IMG/VR virus record: IMGVR_UViG_3300028399_000002
Span: 1-52,856 of that record
Source of the DNA: a virus
Taxonomy: Duplodnaviria; Caudoviricetes
Length of the DNA stretch: 52,856 nucleotides
Reading direction: 5' to 3' (one strand)
Positions within the stretch are counted from its first letter, which is position 1, and each line of letters opens with the position of its first letter. Below the pieces are notes generated by a model. It saw nothing but the letters and a program-made list of their open reading frames with translations, searched no databases and was not told the DNA's origin. Shown one piece after another: positions 1 to 52,856 of the stretch. A program made the position numbers and the translations under genes.

Positions 1-127
1 ATAGATACTCTTAGGAAGGAAAATTTAGGTTGTGTTCCGCTTCCTAAAGAAGTACATGAGTTGAGATACAAGATTCACTTGGCTCTCAGAAAAAGAAAAA
101 GTAAGTCCCCTTCAGAGGTGACTCTGA
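1..127. repeat. 127-bp terminal direct repeat (copy 1; copy 2 at 52730-52856), probable circular-assembly overlap
   Basis: Exact identity of 1-127 with 52730-52856. An ORF and an intron read straight through the join, giving a 52,729-bp circle. Confidence 0.95.
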
Positions 128-252
128 AGTGCAAAGCTCCGAAATTGCGGGGAAACCCTAACGTAAAGTCGAGGGCAATCCGCAGCCAAGCCTCTGATGA
201 GGAAGGTTCAACGACTATAATGGAGCCATCTCAAGACGAGATGATGGGATAG
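1..252 (+). CDS. C-terminal part of the intron-encoded LAGLIDADG homing endonuclease (starts at 52412; 189 aa in total)
   Basis: In frame with the ORF from 52412 across the circular join; it contains the 61..252 track ORF. Confidence 0.88.
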   Translation: MDTLRKENLGCVPLPKEVHELRYKIHLALRKRKSKSPSEVTLKCKAPKLRGNPNVKSRAIRSQASDEEGSTTIMEPSQDEMMG

Positions 253-289
253 TCTGAGCTGCATGGAAACATGCAGAATAACAAAACTG

Positions 290-311
290 TTACGGTCATA
301 TCGTAAGCTAA
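290..311 (+). CDS. Exon 2 of the major capsid protein gene (T TAC GGT CAT ATC GTA AGC TAA)
   Basis: Joining ...TGG AT (52389) to base 290 restores W-I-Y-G-H-I-V-S-stop. UUAC pairs with the IGS GUAA as P10. Confidence 0.85.
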
Positions 312-2548: not shown

Positions 2549-5500
2549 ATGGCTGATGTAAAGTGGACAAGAAAAGAAATTGCTCTTGGTGGCAGGCTTA
2601 TAACATATCTTGATCCAATCTTGATCGGCGAAAATTTTTCTTCTCTGATCAATTTGCGGTATACGGATGTCGGTATTAAGGGTATAGGTGGAATGACAAA
2701 GTATAATCCGTCTGCTCTGACTACACATCCTAAGATTAGAAACGCTTTCCACTTTGTGAAAGAGCAGCCTGCTGAAAGTCACTTTCTTGTGCAAGCTTAT
2801 AATGATGCTGAAACTGAAAGCAAAGTTTTTGAGAATACTACTGCTATCACTAACCAAGGCAATTTCTCTGCCACCGCCTTACATACGGATGCTGTAGGTG
2901 CGAGCTTAGGTAGATTCAGTAAAGGTCCTAATGGTAGTGTGATATATTGTAATGGTAAAGAGTCTATGATATGGGGTGGTAATGAGTATCGCTGTGCGGC
3001 GTTCATTAACTATGATCCCTCAGGCTCTTTCAGTTACGATTATTCGGATGTTATCAGTAATACGCTTGATGATAACGAAAATATAGCTACGCTCTATACA
3101 GGAGCTGGAGGTGTAGATTCTAATGTAATGTTGATGCTTCACTGTAATGGTACAGACGGAAGTACAACATTTACAGACGATTCTCCGACTACTCCACATA
3201 CAGTGACGGCAAACGGAAATGCTCAGATAGATACAGCTCAGAAAAAATTTGGCTCTGCTTCTGGTTTATTTGATGGTACTGGTGACTACCTTACTATACC
3301 TGATAATGCAGACTTTGATTTTAGTGGCGGTAACTTTACTATAGATATGCAAGTGAGGCTGAACTCCTTGTCTTCAAATATGGGTTTGTACTCTCAGTCG
3401 TCTGCTGGTGGTGCTGGAGCAGAGGAACACTTTCAGTTCTATGTAACATCTGCTGGAGCTCTTGTCCTCAGCATATACTCTGCTGGTACTGAAGTGGTAA
3501 ATGTTAGTACGGCAGATGGTACAATTTCGACAGGAGCGTGGTATCACGTAGAGCTTGTTGAAAGTGGTAATGACTGGTATATTTTTGTTGATGGTAAGCA
3601 GAAAGCTTATACCAGTGATACTGACCGTGCGGCTAACTATACTGGAAGTGTGTACATAGGCTGTTTGGTAACTGACCAGACAACCACTTCAGCCTATCTT
3701 GATGGCTGGCTTGATGAAATCAGGGTTTCCAATATAGCGAGACATACCTCTGAATTTGAAGCTCCTACTCAGGAGTATTCTACAACTACGTCGCAGTCTT
3801 TTTGTTATATAGGTTCTACAAGACCAATTCAAGGTTTTAAGCTTTATATAAAGACTGTTAATACAGCTTCCAGTAATATGGGTGTAAAATACTGGGATGG
3901 GTCTTCTTGGGTAGGAGTAACTAATTTTTCAGACGGAACAAAAAGTGGTGGAGTTTCGCTTGCACAGACAGGCAGTGTTACATTTGATTCAACAGACGGA
4001 ATTGCTAAAGTAAGATTTTTGAATGATGATGTTCTATATTGGTATCAAGTATATGTGGACAATGTTGCTTCTGGTACTTCTATCTACTATATAACTGTTG
4101 ATACTCCCTTTCAAGATATAAAGGATTTGTGGGATGGTGTTTATCGTGAACCTATACTGTTTAAATTTTGGGATGATAGTAACGGCAAGTTTCTCGATTT
4201 TACTCCTAATGTTGCTGAAGAAGATTATAACTCTGGCAGTTCTACTACCTATGCGCAGGTAGGGGGGTTACAAAGTTCTACTGATTATATTGTTGTAGGT
4301 TTTACTGAAAAGATTACGGGTTTAAAGTTTACTTTGCCTGACGTTGCTAACACTGTTACCGCATCTTGGATTACTGTTTATTATTGGTCGGGTTCTTCTT
4401 GGGTGAGTGTAGGTACTGTAAACGACGGTACACTTAATGGAACTAAGTCACTTGGCCAGTCTGGAGTAATTGATTGGAACCCTACAGTAGGTACAAATGA
4501 GGTAAAGAGACAGATCGAGGATAGCCCTCCGCTTTATTGCTATAAACTAACTTTCGCAAACAATTTTTCTTCTGATGTACGCATAGATTACTGTGGCGGG
4601 ATTACTGCTCCAGAAACTATAAAAGGATACAAGTTTAGTTTGTTTGCTGGTAATAGAGTTTGGCTTTGTTCTGAGACTGCTGGCAAGAAAAATTCTGTCA
4701 GGTGTTCTTCTGAATACACTACTGAAGTGTGGAATGGAGATGACACAGAAGAGTTTGAGTTCGGTGATGAGCGAGAGATTGTAGCGGCTGCTGGACTGTA
4801 TACACAGTTTGGCTCTAACTTGTATAGTGTTATTCTTTTCGCTAAGGAACACGAAATTTGGTTATTGATAGGAAACGATCCTGAAGACTGGGTGAAATAC
4901 AGATTATCTGATAGCATAGGCTGTATTGCTCCATTGACGTTGCAGGCTGTGCACTTAGGTGTAGATAAGAAGACTGGACAGAGTAAAAATGCGGTTATCT
5001 TCCAAGGATCAAACGGAATATATCTCTGTGATGGGCGTTCAATTGTCGGGATACATTCTGATATACAAGATAAGTTTGATATGCGAAATTCCAACTCGGT
5101 AAATTCTGCTAAGAAAAATATATCTAAAGCTTTCTATGACGAAATGAATCAAGAGTATCATTGGTTATGTGCTACAGGTACTTCAACAACTCTCAATGAA
5201 GAATGGGTTTATGACATAAAAAGAGGCAAGTGGTATCAAGTAGATCGCGGTTCCAACAGAGCTTTATCTTGCGGCTGTATTGCTTACGACACAGACGGAA
5301 ACACTTATAACTATGCGGCAGGCGGCGATACTGGATACGTCTTCAGACTTGAATACGGCAATAAAATGGATGAGGCAGACATAGACCACACGTTTGAAAT
5401 TGGTGATCTTGCTCTCAATAATGGATCACTTGAAGTGGAAACTATAGTGAGACGTATAAAGTTAATAATGGTAGCTAAAACTAATACATCTAACAGTGTG

Positions 5501-36003: not shown

Positions 36004-36079
36004 CAGGGTGTAGCTCAATTGGTAGAGCTGGTGCTTTGGGAGCATCAGGCTGGAGGTTCGAGTCCTCCCACCCTGACCA
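36004..36079 (+). tRNA. trnP: tRNA-Pro (anticodon TGG)
   Basis: Acceptor CAGGGTG/CACCCTG, D arm GCTC/GAGC, anticodon loop TTTGGGA, GGTTCGAGTCC T arm, A73 and encoded CCA. Confidence 0.96.
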
Positions 36080-49389: not shown

Positions 49390-50142
49390 ATGGAAGACCT
49401 GGATAACAAGACCAGCCAGTCGTTAGAAGAAGAGGACGACAGGGCCGTGGAGTTAGAGGGTTTGGAAGACGAGAACGAGAAAACTGGTGAACCTGGTGGT
49501 TCAGAGGATGACATTCCTCTTGAGCCTGAAGACAATCGTGTGCGTTCTCAGCTTGGAAGGCGGGTGTCTGAGCTTGATATGAAGCTCAGTAGGATAGAAG
49601 AGATGCTTAGCCAGGTGATGTATAAGAGTGAGCCTAAGAATGAAGAATCTGTTAACGATATTCTTGATGAGTTTGATGATGATATGCCTCTTACTAAGAG
49701 AGATGTTGTTCAACTTCTTAGGGCTGAGAGGCAGAGGGAAGAAAGGGCAAATGAAAAGTACAATAATGACTATCTCAATACTATAAATTCGTTTGCTTCT
49801 GATCCAGATATTGATCCAGAGATTTACAGGGAAGTTATTGCTGAAATGTCTAAACCTGGTAGCAGGTTTAATGTTCGTCACAGTGATAATGGTGCTATCG
49901 ATGCGCAGATGAATTTTCTAAAGGCTCAGACTTATGTTTTGAAGAATAAGTTTTCTGGTGGTAAGCGGAATCCTCTAAAAGGAAACAGGGGGCGTACTGG
50001 TCTTGATATAAGTTCTGGTACTAATGATAGCAATGTAAGGACTCCAAAGATTACTCGGAAACTTCCTGCTGATGCAAAAGATTTTGCTAAGCATTTTGGT
50101 TATACTGATGAAGATTTAGCACGAGTTTTAGGTGAAGAATAA
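49390..50142 (+). CDS. Capsid scaffolding protein
   Basis: Acidic disordered N-terminus, coiled coil, C-terminal helix pair FAKHFGYTDEDL; lies between portal and capsid. Confidence 0.7.
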   Translation: MEDLDNKTSQSLEEEDDRAVELEGLEDENEKTGEPGGSEDDIPLEPEDNRVRSQLGRRVSELDMKLSRIEEMLSQVMYKSEPKNEESVNDILDEFDDDMPLTKRDVVQLLRAERQREERANEKYNNDYLNTINSFASDPDIDPEIYREVIAEMSKPGSRFNVRHSDNGAIDAQMNFLKAQTYVLKNKFSGGKRNPLKGNRGRTGLDISSGTNDSNVRTPKITRKLPADAKDFAKHFGYTDEDLARVLGEE

Positions 50143-50549
50143 TGGCTTTTAAACCTACAAAAGGCAACCGTAAACTATTTAAGGATTCTCGCCGGATTCC
50201 AGTCTCTTCCAAAGAGCCTAAAGACTTGGGAGAACGCGGGGATACGAATAAGTATTACCGTTGCTGGAATTGTGGGTTTATATGTAATGAAGAGCGTGAT
50301 GCTCTTGGAGATGCCTACTCAACCAGTGGTAACTATGCGTATGAAGCGATAAGAACTGCCCAGGGCTATGTGGAGACAGATGAACTTGATATTACTCCGG
50401 TTCTCGGTGGTTCTATTGTAGATTACTTTACCCTGCTTGAGTTAGGCGTAGACGGTAGTACGCCTAAGACCATACGCTACACATTTGAAGCCCTGGTCTC
50501 CAGTGGTTGTCCTGTGTGTGGTACGCTTAATTGGCGTGGCGACTACTAA
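50142..50549 (+). CDS. Zn-ribbon protein in the head module
   Basis: CWNC...CPVC. Confidence 0.7.
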   Translation: MAFKPTKGNRKLFKDSRRIPVSSKEPKDLGERGDTNKYYRCWNCGFICNEERDALGDAYSTSGNYAYEAIRTAQGYVETDELDITPVLGGSIVDYFTLLELGVDGSTPKTIRYTFEALVSSGCPVCGTLNWRGDY

Positions 50550-50551
50550 AA

Positions 50552-50634
50552 TACCCTGTCTATTAACAAGACCTCAACCCGAAAGGCTTGACGTGGAGTT
50601 AATAGGCGAACCTGCTCGTTCGAGGGTAAGAGCA
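50552..50634 (+). ncRNA. Candidate structured cis-regulatory RNA (three-way junction plus pseudoknot) upstream of the capsid genes
   Basis: TACCCT/AGGGTA; GTCTATTAAC/GTTAATAGGC; GAAC/GTTC with loop TGCTC complementary to downstream GAGCA. Confidence 0.55.
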
Positions 50635-50661
50635 AAATAAAATAAGGAGGGAAAGCTACGG

Positions 50662-51474
50662 ATGATTACTTTCGTCGGCGAAGCTCCACAGAAAATCTGG
50701 ATACCTATTAAGCCAGGTGCTACTGTCTATGTAGGTAGCATAGTTACCCTCGATATTTCTGCCCTTGACGAAGGCTGTATTGTTCGTGGTCAGGCTGACG
50801 GCGCGGCTGATACTACGAACAAGGATGTACCCTTTGGTGTTGTGGTAGGCACCAATAGGAAGAATCCGCTGTACAGTTCTACGTATAAGGCTGAGTATAT
50901 CACGGATTCGGGTGCTACTGCTCCTCATAGCTCTACTGTGGAGTTTGTAGGTTACGAAGGTCCCGGTGCCAAGGGTGATCGTAGGGAGCTTGTCGAGGTT
51001 GCGCTTATAATGCCGCATACCATCTTGCGGGCTCCTATTTACAACGATGCAGTAGGTACTGCGCCTACGTTGCTGACTGCTACTGCGGGCTCTACGGATG
51101 GTCTCAGTGTTACAACTAACGCTTGTGACTTTACTCCGGTTGCAAACCTCTGTACGATATATTGTCGTACTGGTGCCAATAGGGGTATTTACAGGATTAC
51201 TGATGATACCTCTACTACGGCTGCTACATGGGATGTTGCAATGCCTTACGATATAGCAGTTGGTGATACGTTCATCCGCGTACCTGTGCGTTGGTGGGGA
51301 CCGACATACGCACGTTTGGGAGATGATACTGTATGTTCGTATCTTAACTGCTCGGAGACTCCTGCAACCAACTATGACATTATTCATGTTGTTAGGTTGG
51401 ACTTGAAGGAGGCGGGCAAGGAAGTGGTTGAGTTCTACTTTGGGGCGGATCACTTCGCTACAGCAAGAGCGTAA
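50662..51474 (+). CDS. Capsid cement/decoration protein
   Basis: Immediately before the capsid gene; Thr/Ala/Gly-rich; RBS AAGGAGG. Confidence 0.6.
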   Translation: MITFVGEAPQKIWIPIKPGATVYVGSIVTLDISALDEGCIVRGQADGAADTTNKDVPFGVVVGTNRKNPLYSSTYKAEYITDSGATAPHSSTVEFVGYEGPGAKGDRRELVEVALIMPHTILRAPIYNDAVGTAPTLLTATAGSTDGLSVTTNACDFTPVANLCTIYCRTGANRGIYRITDDTSTTAATWDVAMPYDIAVGDTFIRVPVRWWGPTYARLGDDTVCSYLNCSETPATNYDIIHVVRLDLKEAGKEVVEFYFGADHFATARA

Positions 51475-51487
51475 GGAGGTAGTGTAA

Positions 51488-52411
51488 ATGGGTAATCCTG
51501 TTGTGAGTTCTGCCTTCGTTCGTTTGCTGGATGACCGTCTTGATAAGGTCAAAGAGGATATATTCAAGGACCTGCCAAGTCAGATAGACAACTTGTACAC
51601 TGTTGCAAAGTCTGAGAGGGCTTGGCACGAGTTCTTTGAAGTGGGTTCTCTGCCTGATATTCCTGAGTTCAATGGAAAGATCAGCTACTTGCCGATCCAT
51701 CCTGGTTTCCACACCAAGATTGAACATAAGGAGTATGCTGCGGGAGTCCAGTACGAGCGGAAGCTGCTGGATGACAAGCGGTATGACGTGTTCGAGAAGC
51801 GTGGTGAGAAGCTTCTGAAGAGCGCGCATCGTACTCGCGAGAAGATAGCGATTGAGCCTTTTGCCTATGCCTCTTCTGCTTCGTTCAGCTACATGACGAG
51901 CGAGGAGGGAGTGGCTCTGGTATCCAGCTCGCATACCACGAAGTCGGGTACTTCGACTTCTTCAGGCTTTGATAATGCGGGTTCGTCTGCACTGTCCAAG
52001 TCTGCGGTTGCGACTACAAGGATATTGATGAGGCAGTTCCGTAACGATATCAGTGAGAGGATAGACATGAGCGATAATTTTGCTCTTGTTGTTCCTGATG
52101 CTCTCGCGGATACCGCTTACGAGATCGTCAATACTCCTAAGGGTCTGGATACTGCCGAGGGGAACGTGAACCCTCAGTATGGTAGGTATAAAATCATCGT
52201 GCTTCCGAGGCTCGATGATTATGATACCAATAACTGGTTCATGGTGAACCTCGATCTCATGAAGGAGTCGCTTATTTGGTTTAACCGTATTGAGCCTGAG
52301 GTTGCTTCTACGTGGGATTTTGACACTCTGTTGCTCAAGACCCGTGTGTACTTCAGGTGTTCTTACGGTTGGATAGATTGGCGCTGGATTTACGGATCAA
52401 TTGTGAGCTAA
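51488..52411 (+). CDS. Major capsid protein (exon 1 ends at 52389; the unspliced frame also ends properly at 52411)
   Basis: 307 aa; DDKRY, EGVALVSSSH, LVVP, NNWF, R.SYGWIDWR motifs of Mu gpT-like/HK97-fold capsids; RBS AAGGAGGT. Confidence 0.88.
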   Translation: MGNPVVSSAFVRLLDDRLDKVKEDIFKDLPSQIDNLYTVAKSERAWHEFFEVGSLPDIPEFNGKISYLPIHPGFHTKIEHKEYAAGVQYERKLLDDKRYDVFEKRGEKLLKSAHRTREKIAIEPFAYASSASFSYMTSEEGVALVSSSHTTKSGTSTSSGFDNAGSSALSKSAVATTRILMRQFRNDISERIDMSDNFALVVPDALADTAYEIVNTPKGLDTAEGNVNPQYGRYKIIVLPRLDDYDTNNWFMVNLDLMKESLIWFNRIEPEVASTWDFDTLLLKTRVYFRCSYGWIDWRWIYGSIVS

Positions 52412-52856
52412 ATGGACGTACTCGACTCATATGTAGCAGGGTTCTTTGATGGTGAAGGTTGTATATCTTCACAGGAAAGTTGGATACCTGGAAAGTATGA
52501 AAAATTCCCGCGTATAAATCTTCAAATTTCTATAACTAATACTGATAAAGAAGTTTTGAATCTTATACGTGGAAGGTTTGGAGGTCAGATAAGCAAGCAT
52601 ACTAAGAAAACTGGTAAGTTGTGTTATGCTTGGAAACTAACAGGTAAAGACAAAATGAGGGTTTTCCTTTTGTCTGTGCTCCCCTACCTGATAGTTAAAA
52701 AAGAACAGGCTTTGCTTGCTTTGGAATTTATAGATACTCTTAGGAAGGAAAATTTAGGTTGTGTTCCGCTTCCTAAAGAAGTACATGAGTTGAGATACAA
52801 GATTCACTTGGCTCTCAGAAAAAGAAAAAGTAAGTCCCCTTCAGAGGTGACTCTGA
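52390..52856 (+). mobile_element. Group I intron, 5' part (P1 loop carrying the homing endonuclease); 629 nt in total on the circle
   Basis: GGAU|UUAC pairs with IGS GUAAGUCC (52830-52837 = 101-108) with the canonical U-G pair at the splice site. Confidence 0.88.
52412..52856 (+). CDS. Single-motif LAGLIDADG homing endonuclease (I-CreI-like); continues to base 252
   Basis: MDVLDSYVAGFFDGEGCI...ISITNTD...FGG...LPYLIVKKEQALL. The ORF track misses it because it crosses the window end. Confidence 0.92.
   Translation, partial: MDVLDSYVAGFFDGEGCISSQESWIPGKYEKFPRINLQISITNTDKEVLNLIRGRFGGQISKHTKKTGKLCYAWKLTGKDKMRVFLLSVLPYLIVKKEQALLALEFIDTLRKENLGCVPLPKEVHELRYKIHLALRKRKSKSPSEVTL

Follow-up and report, generated by a model that had tools for sequence, protein, structure and literature searches.

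Group I introns in protein-coding genes must, by the textbook account, be spliced, and this requirement is held to explain both their intact ribozymes and their rarity in heavily translated genes of bacteria and phages. In the td, nrdB and sunY introns of phage T4 the peptide made by reading on past exon 1 is not known to be a copy of the downstream exon, and unspliced RNA gives a truncated, useless protein. The element considered here shares with introns of this kind an upstream frame that stops within a few intron codons and the same general type of ribozyme core. It is a group I intron with a LAGLIDADG homing endonuclease gene in the major capsid gene of a phage genome of 52,856 nucleotides (nt), a complete IMG/VR virus record of the direct terminal repeats class (IMGVR_UViG_3300028399_000002; this entire stretch of DNA is called the window). 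The intron sits 22 nt upstream of the capsid stop, seven codons from the end of the gene, and its own first 22 nt spell out a spare ending for the capsid protein (designated the surrogate exon, or surrogate).

Phage introns with an in-frame stop just past the 5' splice site have been read as a case of ribosome stalling that protects ribozyme folding (PMC3984707). The major capsid gene of mycobacteriophage LittleE (Cluster J) also has a group I intron with a homing endonuclease, spliced in late expression (PMC3706429); it differs in lying near the N-terminal processing site and in having its HNH gene on the opposite strand, and the passages that deal with it describe no exon copy. In models of intron invasion and collaborative homing, the intron sequences that flank an endonuclease open reading frame (ORF) can resemble the exon junction, and endonucleases of the free-standing and the intron-borne kind have one target in common (PMC3984707, section 12). 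The set of lineages described below resembles stages of that pathway, but a complete, conserved and translatable copy of the downstream exon is neither predicted nor described in that section's account of the models.

The closest published analogue is found in fungal mitochondria, where elements called mORFs bring with them an in-phase replacement C-terminus, the native one being displaced downstream; the accounts cover atp6 of Allomyces macrogynus, atp6, atp9, cox2 and nad3 of Glomus, and cob and atp6 of Endoconidiophora (PMC3630166, PMC6279837). As far as these accounts go, both systems place a LAGLIDADG gene (in mORFs also a GIY-YIG gene) near the 3' end of an essential gene, after a diverged in-phase copy of its C-terminus, and in both the copies differ mainly at synonymous sites. 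The window's cassette is unlike a mORF in that it lies inside a group I intron whose ribozyme could remove it, so that two routes to the protein would coexist; it also differs in its host, a phage capsid gene, and in the shortness of the copy, which has only seven codons. In the literature that was searched, no account came up of a group I intron in which the downstream exon is present as a translatable copy. The window's element combines the two kinds, a mobile group I intron and a replacement C-terminus like that of a mORF.

Anatomy of the capsid locus

Read without splicing, as listed, the capsid ORF occupies 51488-52411 (+) and ends TGG ATT TAC GGA TCA ATT GTG AGC TAA (WIYGSIVS*, the asterisk standing for the stop). 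Joining 52389 to 290 gives TGG ATT TAC GGT CAT ATC GTA AGC TAA, or WIYGHIVS*. Either reading yields 307 amino acids, the standard length of the family, and the joined exons match the family's consensus ending. The protein is recognized by PF25209 (47.1 bits) and PF10124 (35.4 bits) and has 735 homologues at E<=0.001; nearly all of the 120 listed are 305-310 amino acids long. The parts of the locus are as follows.

51488..52389 (+): capsid exon 1, a Mu gpT-like major head protein; residues 1-300 and two bases of codon 301
52386..52393 (+): 5' strand of P1, exon GGAU followed by intron UUAC, complementary to 101-108; 5' splice site after U52389
52390..52411 (+): surrogate exon, intron bases 1-22, in frame with exon 1; (I)YGSIVS, stop TAA at 52409-52411
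52412..52856 (+): LAGLIDADG homing endonuclease gene, first 148 codons, in the P1 loop; its ATG abuts the surrogate stop (TAAATG)
1..252 (+): remainder of the endonuclease ORF; 1-127 repeat 52730-52856; stop TAG at 250-252
101..108 (+): internal guide sequence, GUAAGUCC; GUCC pairs with exon 1 GGAU, GUAA with intron UUAC
110..129 (+): P2 hairpin, CUUCAGAG-GUGA-CUCUGAAG, by sequence pairing
133..276 (+): ribozyme core, P3-P9, inside the RF00028 match 66-276
277..289 (+): 3' tail, AAUAACAAAACUG, the 13 bases after P9, with terminal G289; 3' splice site after 289
290..311 (+): true exon 2, T TAC GGT CAT ATC GTA AGC TAA, (I)YGHIVS*
52730..52856 (no strand): terminal overlap of 127 base pairs (bp), identical to 1-127, which closes the assembly into a circle

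The element thus runs across the ends of the linear record. Metagenome assemblers commonly use 127 as their largest k-mer, and the overlap is therefore taken to be a leftover of a circular assembly path; the true circular unit is 52,729 bases. Run X1 places 50000-52856 inside a 51,521-base contig that extends beyond both ends (X1 may be the window's source sample, in which case its independence is that of the assembler only). The origin-spanning join does not look like a misassembly, a possibility that the first-pass annotation (made from the window's sequence alone) had raised: endonuclease gene, ribozyme and exon 2 are contiguous on single contigs of two relatives, L339 and L037.

Positions 66-276 score 82 bits on the Rfam model Intron_gpI (RF00028; E 2.1e-19), against a gathering score of 50, and the ribozyme core matches 209 phage records. 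A U.G pair in P1 is a hallmark of group I 5' splice sites; U52389 is opposite a G (the pairing was judged by eye). The GGAU.G register is kept in relatives, the guide's GUCC aligning with the same bases in L339 and L023, and the intron-side pairs of P1 covary across four lineages (L339 AG/CU, L023 AAU/AUU, L037 GUGGAU/GUCCAC). P10 is possible, since the UUAC of exon 2 can take the place of the intron's UUAC on the guide's GUAA. Compensatory changes among related introns back P1, P2 and P4-P9: in an alignment of six such introns 12 of 27 predicted pairs have changed on both sides, and P2, P3, P8 and P9 are fully compensated among the window, L339 and L023 (P2 is ACGAGAA/UUCUCGU in L339 and ACAGGAA/UUCCUGU in L023). 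The tail motif UAACAAnACUG is also kept in L339 and L023. A 3' splice site at G276, the last base of the Rfam match, was considered and rejected: it would yield WIITKLLRSYRKLT*, unlike any homologue. The predicted ligated-exon junction is TGGAT joined to TTACGGTCAT. Both the apparent integrity of the ribozyme (P1 with its U-G, P10, P3-P9, terminal G) and these predicted splice sites had been put forward in the first-pass annotation, and both hold up: the former on its 82 bits, its covarying helices and G289, the latter on the family consensus ending at 307 amino acids and on the register and covariation of P1. The window's ribozyme is apparently able to remove the surrogate and the endonuclease gene.

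The spare ending

Surrogate and exon 2 both finish the capsid in frame. Aligned without gaps they share 16 of 22 positions; the codons that differ are GGA/GGT, TCA/CAT, ATT/ATC and GTG/GTA, just as first annotated. With gaps (an A added after GG, a T removed after TCA) 19 positions match; aligned in this way, the change from a His to a Ser codon reads as the insertion of an A and the deletion of a T three bases on, that is, as a compensated frameshift. When the opening 30 nt of the intron and of exon 2 are aligned locally, 0 of 2000 shuffles reach the observed score. Mimicry imposed by P1 and P10 accounts for the common TTAC(GG) and leaves the other 16 bases unexplained.

The six C-terminal residues of 115 homologues were turned into a profile (Tyr 0.77, Gly 0.80, His 0.67, a variable position, Val 0.92, Ser 0.70). 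The window's surrogate scores 16.2 bits on it and exon 2 scores 20.45; among 2,000,000 random 21-mers of the window's base composition, none combines a first stop at codon 7 with a score as high as the surrogate's. The capsid frame stops at intron codon 8 in the window, and it stops early likewise in L339, L023 and L037.

Other lineages at the same capsid site

Capsid loci were collected from IMG/VR with the window capsid (35 loci) and with its homologue P0036 (L116; 80 loci), and from JGI metagenomes with the window capsid (58 loci, top identity 69% or less). L036 and L037, endonuclease relatives adjoining a capsid homologue, were added from among 80 endonuclease loci; the total is 173 loci. 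The C-terminal region is present in 159 of these and collapses to 100 distinct regions, in which the pattern G[HQNSM].V[STA]* occurs once in 88, not at all in nine, and twice within 1.5 kilobases (kb) in three. (L037 is not counted here, its alignment having been broken by an insertion further upstream.) The nine ends off pattern, for example YWNIVS*, have no second copy and were taken as natural variants. Over 590 kb the coding strand has 110 occurrences of the C-terminal pattern and the opposite strand has none.

Rfam at its gathering threshold found no intron in the 35 IMG/VR capsid loci and missed that of L023 (35.1 bits), which was detected solely through its second C-terminal copy. Pattern TAACAANACTGNTACGG matched 81 IMG/VR stretches, with a capsid homologue only on L023's own contig, and for pattern TGGATNNNNGGNNNNNNNGTGAGCTAA the one real match among 8 stretches was again the contig of L023. 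The odd ending of L301, examined as a possible intron, is a frameshift instead. The lineages with a second ending or an adjoining endonuclease gene are these (endings without and with predicted splicing, or first and second copy).

Window: ribozyme 82 bits; LAGLIDADG; unspliced WIYGSIVS*, spliced WIYGHIVS*
L339 (5' part also in L305): ribozyme 46.9 bits, E 1.2e-9; LAGLIDADG; unspliced WIAGHQVS*, spliced WIFGHNVT*
L023/L310: ribozyme 35.1 bits, E 3.6e-7, by local search; no endonuclease, intron of 294 nt; WIMGMNVS* and WIYGQNVT*
L037: ribozyme 60.8 bits; LAGLIDADG; unspliced WIMGHEVS*, spliced WIYGHQVS*
L009/L010: no ribozyme at E<=0.01; LAGLIDADG, 34% identical to the window's; ...YGHTVS*, with a second copy NGHTVT* at the end of the endonuclease ORF
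L036: no ribozyme; LAGLIDADG, 43-44% identical to the window's, 31 nt past the stop; ...YGHLVA*, the ORF ending ...NVV* and followed by a hairpin

All four intron lineages (window, L339/L305, L023/L310 and L037) open with an in-frame surrogate of seven codons and a stop, equal in length. The peptides are, in that order, YGSIVS*, AGHQVS*, MGMNVS* and MGHEVS*; the codons are GGA/GGT/GGA/GGG for Gly, GTG/GTG/GTG/GTT for Val, AGC/AGT/AGC/AGT for Ser and TAA/TAA/TAA/TAG for the stop. At these four codons at least five changes have occurred, and all are silent; about 9 of the 36 possible single changes would be silent, which puts five of five at P ~1e-3 by our own arithmetic. At the level of DNA, surrogate and exon 2 are no more alike than chance in the three other lineages (the observed similarity is reached by 539, 1016 and 1025 of 2000 shuffles for L339, L023 and L037), so that there the coding case rests on the peptide profile; random sequences reach the surrogate's profile score in 0 of 2,000,000 trials for L339 and at frequencies of 6e-6 for L023 and 2e-6 for L037. 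L037 is the extreme case: every residue that its surrogate and exon 2 share is encoded differently (GGG/GGT, CAC/CAT, GTT/GTA, AGT/TCA, TAG/TGA), and the DNA matches at 9 of 22 positions. A neutral relic would lose DNA similarity and peptide pattern together. Here the first has decayed and the second has stayed, which argues that the surrogate is not such a relic.

The first-pass annotation had proposed that both copies are selected as coding sequence. The persistence of the second copy, in frame and at the same length, in aligned capsid 3' ends of four lineages, together with the silent-only codon changes and the peptide profile, supports that proposal, and the earlier interpretation is largely sustained. 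One correction applies: the layout is no peculiarity of the window's intron. Judged from these alignments, it is of old standing and has been inherited within a lineage of introns and endonucleases that is tied to this capsid site.

The introns of the window, L339 and L023 have one architecture: surrogate, endonuclease gene or its remnant, GUCC guide, P2, core and UAACAAnACUG. L023/L310 has kept surrogate and ribozyme, and what follows the surrogate (GRNIYNKLIHRKPIVPT) aligns with the tail of the L339 endonuclease (RRNIYNKLVHRKSTVPT), which implies that L023 is a deletion derivative. The capsids of the three other intron lineages are 36-55% identical to the window's, L037 being at ~36%. Divergence of the intron keeps pace with that of its host gene.

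Window and L339: ribozyme 61% (nt), last 224 nt of exon 1 65%, capsid 55% (amino acids, by way of L305, which has the full capsid)
L339 and L023: ribozyme 77.5% (nt), last 224 nt of exon 1 77%, capsid 86% (amino acids, as L305 and L310)

Because intron divergence follows capsid divergence, the association of the intron with this site is probably old. Near-identical 5' parts of the intron are found in two capsid backgrounds, L305 and L339.

Three states of the element are thus represented in one capsid family: intron with endonuclease gene (window, L339, L037), intron only (L023) and endonuclease gene only (L009, L036). In L009/L010 (two samples) and in L036, which have no ribozyme, the first copy is the sole capsid end. 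L009 and L036 have exactly the build of a fungal mORF, in which the inserted C-terminus is the one expressed, in this case without a ribozyme. The ...NVV* at the end of the L036 ORF is possibly a relic of exon 2, and the L036 endonuclease is the closest to the window's among the IMG/VR matches listed. That splicing is optional is supported only indirectly, by these ribozyme-less loci and by the tolerance of the family for surrogate-like ends: L116 has no intron and ends WIYGSIVA*, directly followed by a hairpin, so that Ser at position -4 occurs naturally (other single-copy loci end GSQVS, GSNVS, GSSVS or GSAVS), and Met at -6 is found in the single-copy locus L176.

Further insertions and repeats surround the same gene. 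In several intron-free relatives (L012-L014 at 3940-3960, L145 at ~3422-3440) a short conserved stretch directly past the capsid stop reads IISDT* or IISGT* in the capsid frame. L037 has a second capsid insertion at ~650-1270, after ...DFDTYV and upstream of the C-terminal intron, with a different LAGLIDADG ORF (MDMNFGNYIAGLIDGEGYF...) and with no Rfam match at E<=0.01 over it. Additional LAGLIDADG genes flank the capsid gene at 4232-4772 and 1955-2482 in L186 and at 2510-2989 in L009; in both loci one lies directly upstream of the capsid start, and in L186 one lies just past the capsid stop, after a partial repeat of the capsid end (ATCTTTGGTCATTCC as compared with ATTTTTGGTCATTCG). Endonuclease genes thus seem to gather at the ends of the capsid gene, which look like insertion hot spots.

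This capsid family has another intron site after ...DTNNWF, at about residue 252 (L184 3253-3866, L186 3274-4059, L188 3253-3895). The introns there are of group I (66-82 bits), each with an HNH-type ORF that runs through the ribozyme, and in L188 and L184 the capsid frame ends at a TAA abutting the ORF's ATG (TAAATG), as in the window. The only other Rfam match in the window at the gathering threshold is a tRNA gene at 36004-36076 (67.2 bits).

The endonuclease gene

The full endonuclease ORF has 189 amino acids and starts ATG GAC GTA CTC GAC TCA TAT GTA GCA GGG TTC TTT GAT GGT GAA GGT TGT, which includes the LAGLIDADG motif YVAGFFDGEGC. It matches PF00961 with 32.2 bits (cut-off 23.1), and PF14528 with 20.0 bits, under the cut-off of 22.5. 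The endonucleases of L339 and L037 are 51% (BLASTP) and 37% identical to it. The gene is placed in the P1 loop because the P1 strands (52386-52393 and 101-108) flank it. Its last ~50 codons (101-252 of the window) overlap the guide and P2-P8, and its stop falls within the 3' strand of P7. The endonuclease tail AIRSQASDEE is in effect the translated P4-P6 core; its counterpart in L037 is TIRSQASQEE, and the L037 ORF reads even through exon 2. With such an overlap, translation of the endonuclease and folding of the ribozyme should be mutually exclusive.

Scans for promoters and terminators gave the endonuclease gene no promoter of its own and showed no canonical terminator close to the element. 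The surrogate stop is 0 nt from the endonuclease ATG in the window, 2 nt from it in L339 and 8 nt from it in L037, whose TAG-GAG creates AGGAG. With a stop so near the ATG and no promoter-like site, translation of the endonuclease is probably coupled to that of the capsid. The enzyme itself would be expected to cleave the intron-free allele and to home.

Related populations

Run X2 comes from another vent study. One of its contigs, of depth 23.2, fits 50000-52387 at ~93.5% identity (154 differences in 2388 nt). Around 52358-52395 the X2 assembly splits three ways.

Branch 1: 10,272-base contig, depth 27.7; departs from the window after 52395 with CCATATTGTAAGTTAATGTTTTTATTAGGT (CCATATTGTAAGTTAA), giving YGHIVS*
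Branch 2: 187-base piece, depth 3.1; fits 52349-52392 and continues TGGCCATTCTGTGAGTTAATCTCCTGTGAG, giving YGHSVS*
Branch 3: 331-base piece, depth 6.4; surrogate and endonuclease gene to 52688, 23 differences, no gaps

The native ending in X2 is that of the window's exon 2 peptide, not of its surrogate. The codons GTG AGT TAA of the 187-base piece are typical of surrogates, and the piece might be an intron variant rather than an intron-free allele. Run X3 contributes an intron-bearing piece of 323 bases (52258-52580, 21 differences, no gaps). The element is apparently polymorphic, present in some members of related populations and absent from others, as expected of a homing element.

Weighing the explanations

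The reading favored here, at a probability of roughly 0.7, is that the element is a mobile group I intron with its endonuclease gene in the P1 loop, that its first 22 nt are an old and diverged copy of exon 2, and that either RNA, spliced or unspliced, would give capsid protein. What the sequences show is the anatomy of the locus, the conservation of that anatomy in relatives, and presence or absence of the element in related populations; the events may be pictured as follows. Ribosomes on unspliced late mRNA would complete a 307-amino acid capsid protein with Ser303, and this form would assemble. Termination at the TAA abutting the ATG would probably tie the translation of the endonuclease, at a low level, to that of the capsid. 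Where the ribozyme folds, splicing would remove surrogate, endonuclease gene and ribozyme, and restore the native YGHIVS* with His303. Since both RNAs would yield usable capsid protein, the element would cost the phage little, even where translation outcompetes ribozyme folding; ribozyme or endonuclease gene could then be lost without killing the capsid gene. Four consecutive changed bases in the surrogate, +7 to +10, would set the occupied allele apart from the target of the endonuclease, which is presumed to cut the intron-free allele.

Several points weigh against this reading. The surrogate scores below exon 2 on the profile in four of four lineages (16.2/20.5, 15.5/17.9, 9.6/17.5 and 11.3/21.6), and at position -6, where ~90% of the family has Tyr or Phe, three surrogates have Ala or Met; some surrogates may give poorer protein. 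The first surrogate codon is also held by P1, and the shared GTGAG could serve ribosome binding, so that part of the conservation may be non-coding. The sample is limited to four lineages, with surrogates of a length that will not support a tree. The window's surrogate has more in common with its own exon 2 (16/22) than with any of the other surrogates (at most 14/22), and surrogates differ more from one another (9-14/22) than copies of exon 2 do (14-19/22); repeated copying from real capsid ends may be at work instead of conservation in place. At the internal capsid site the L186 intron also starts like its exon 2 (33/2000 shuffles) and cannot yield a full protein there, which implies that similarity can arise without coding selection. 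The intron-free reading of X2 depends on 30 letters beyond the fit, and a different insertion is possible. Finally, the argument from L009 and L036 presupposes that they descend from intron-bearing ancestors, as their build suggests.

The first competing explanation, considered unlikely, is that the intron came to start like an exon as a side effect of endonuclease entry, the copy being a relic unselected as coding sequence in a phage that needs splicing. Either a free-standing endonuclease gene and a capsid end were captured together into the P1 loop, or the endonuclease invaded a target-like intron sequence; both routes of invasion are published (Loizos et al. and Bonocora & Shub, as summarized in PMC3984707, section 12). 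Free-standing endonuclease relatives directly past the capsid stop in L036 and L009 would suit such an origin, as would the likeness that P1 and P10 impose on the first 4-6 nt of intron and exon 2, and the exon-2-like start of L186. However, the other internal-site intron, that of L188, shows no resemblance between its start and its exon 2 (1392/2000 shuffles), and the explanation covers origin only, origin and maintenance being separate questions. A relic would not hold seven codons with silent-only changes at Gly, Val, Ser and stop in four lineages whose surrogates, outside the window, resemble exon 2 at the DNA level no more than chance predicts.

Still less probable is that the ribozyme is dead, that the capsid gene now ends at the surrogate and the endonuclease gene is effectively free-standing, and that 290-311 is a decaying relic, the L009 state in the making. 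Ribozyme-less versions do exist (L009 and L036), and the endonuclease ORF spans the entire catalytic core, so that its translation would unfold that core. Nevertheless, the window's 82 bits are as high as those of any relative, all helices pair and covary, and the terminal G and the UAACAAnACUG tail are retained. Exon 2, which ought then to be decaying, is the more consensus-like of the window's two copies (20.45 bits), encodes the same peptide as the apparent intron-free X2 allele, and is intact and in frame in four of four lineages. A regulated pair of isoforms, His303 and Ser303, with distinct roles in the shell and a ratio set by splicing is very improbable: partial splicing would make both forms, and position -4 is His in about two-thirds of homologues, but the differences between surrogate and exon 2 are inconsistent from lineage to lineage (S/H; A-Q-S/F-N-T; M-M-S/Y-Q-T; M-E/Y-Q), 88 of 100 distinct related capsid ends show one ending and nine none (by pattern), and the ribozyme-less relatives have a single form.

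The favored reading, a mobile intron with a coding copy of its downstream exon, can be taken a step further: the spare ending would be a fail-safe kept by purifying selection, making a near-harmless intron in the most heavily translated essential gene, with stop and start signals that feed the endonuclease and with shuttling among three states that leaves the capsid gene unbroken. This extended claim is about as likely as not.

Implications

An intron with a working copy of the exon that it severs would break the dependence of group I introns on splicing, and this would account for the persistence of homing endonuclease elements in capsid genes. If the fail-safe reading is true, the element moves among its three states without breaking the capsid gene, since splicing is not needed. 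Gene callers will label such capsid genes as intact and intron-free, and introns of this kind are therefore probably undercounted. The lineages at this site would provide a stepwise route between intron-borne and free-standing endonuclease genes, with all stages found within one capsid family, and would link phage introns with those elements of fungal mitochondria that arrive with a replacement C-terminus.

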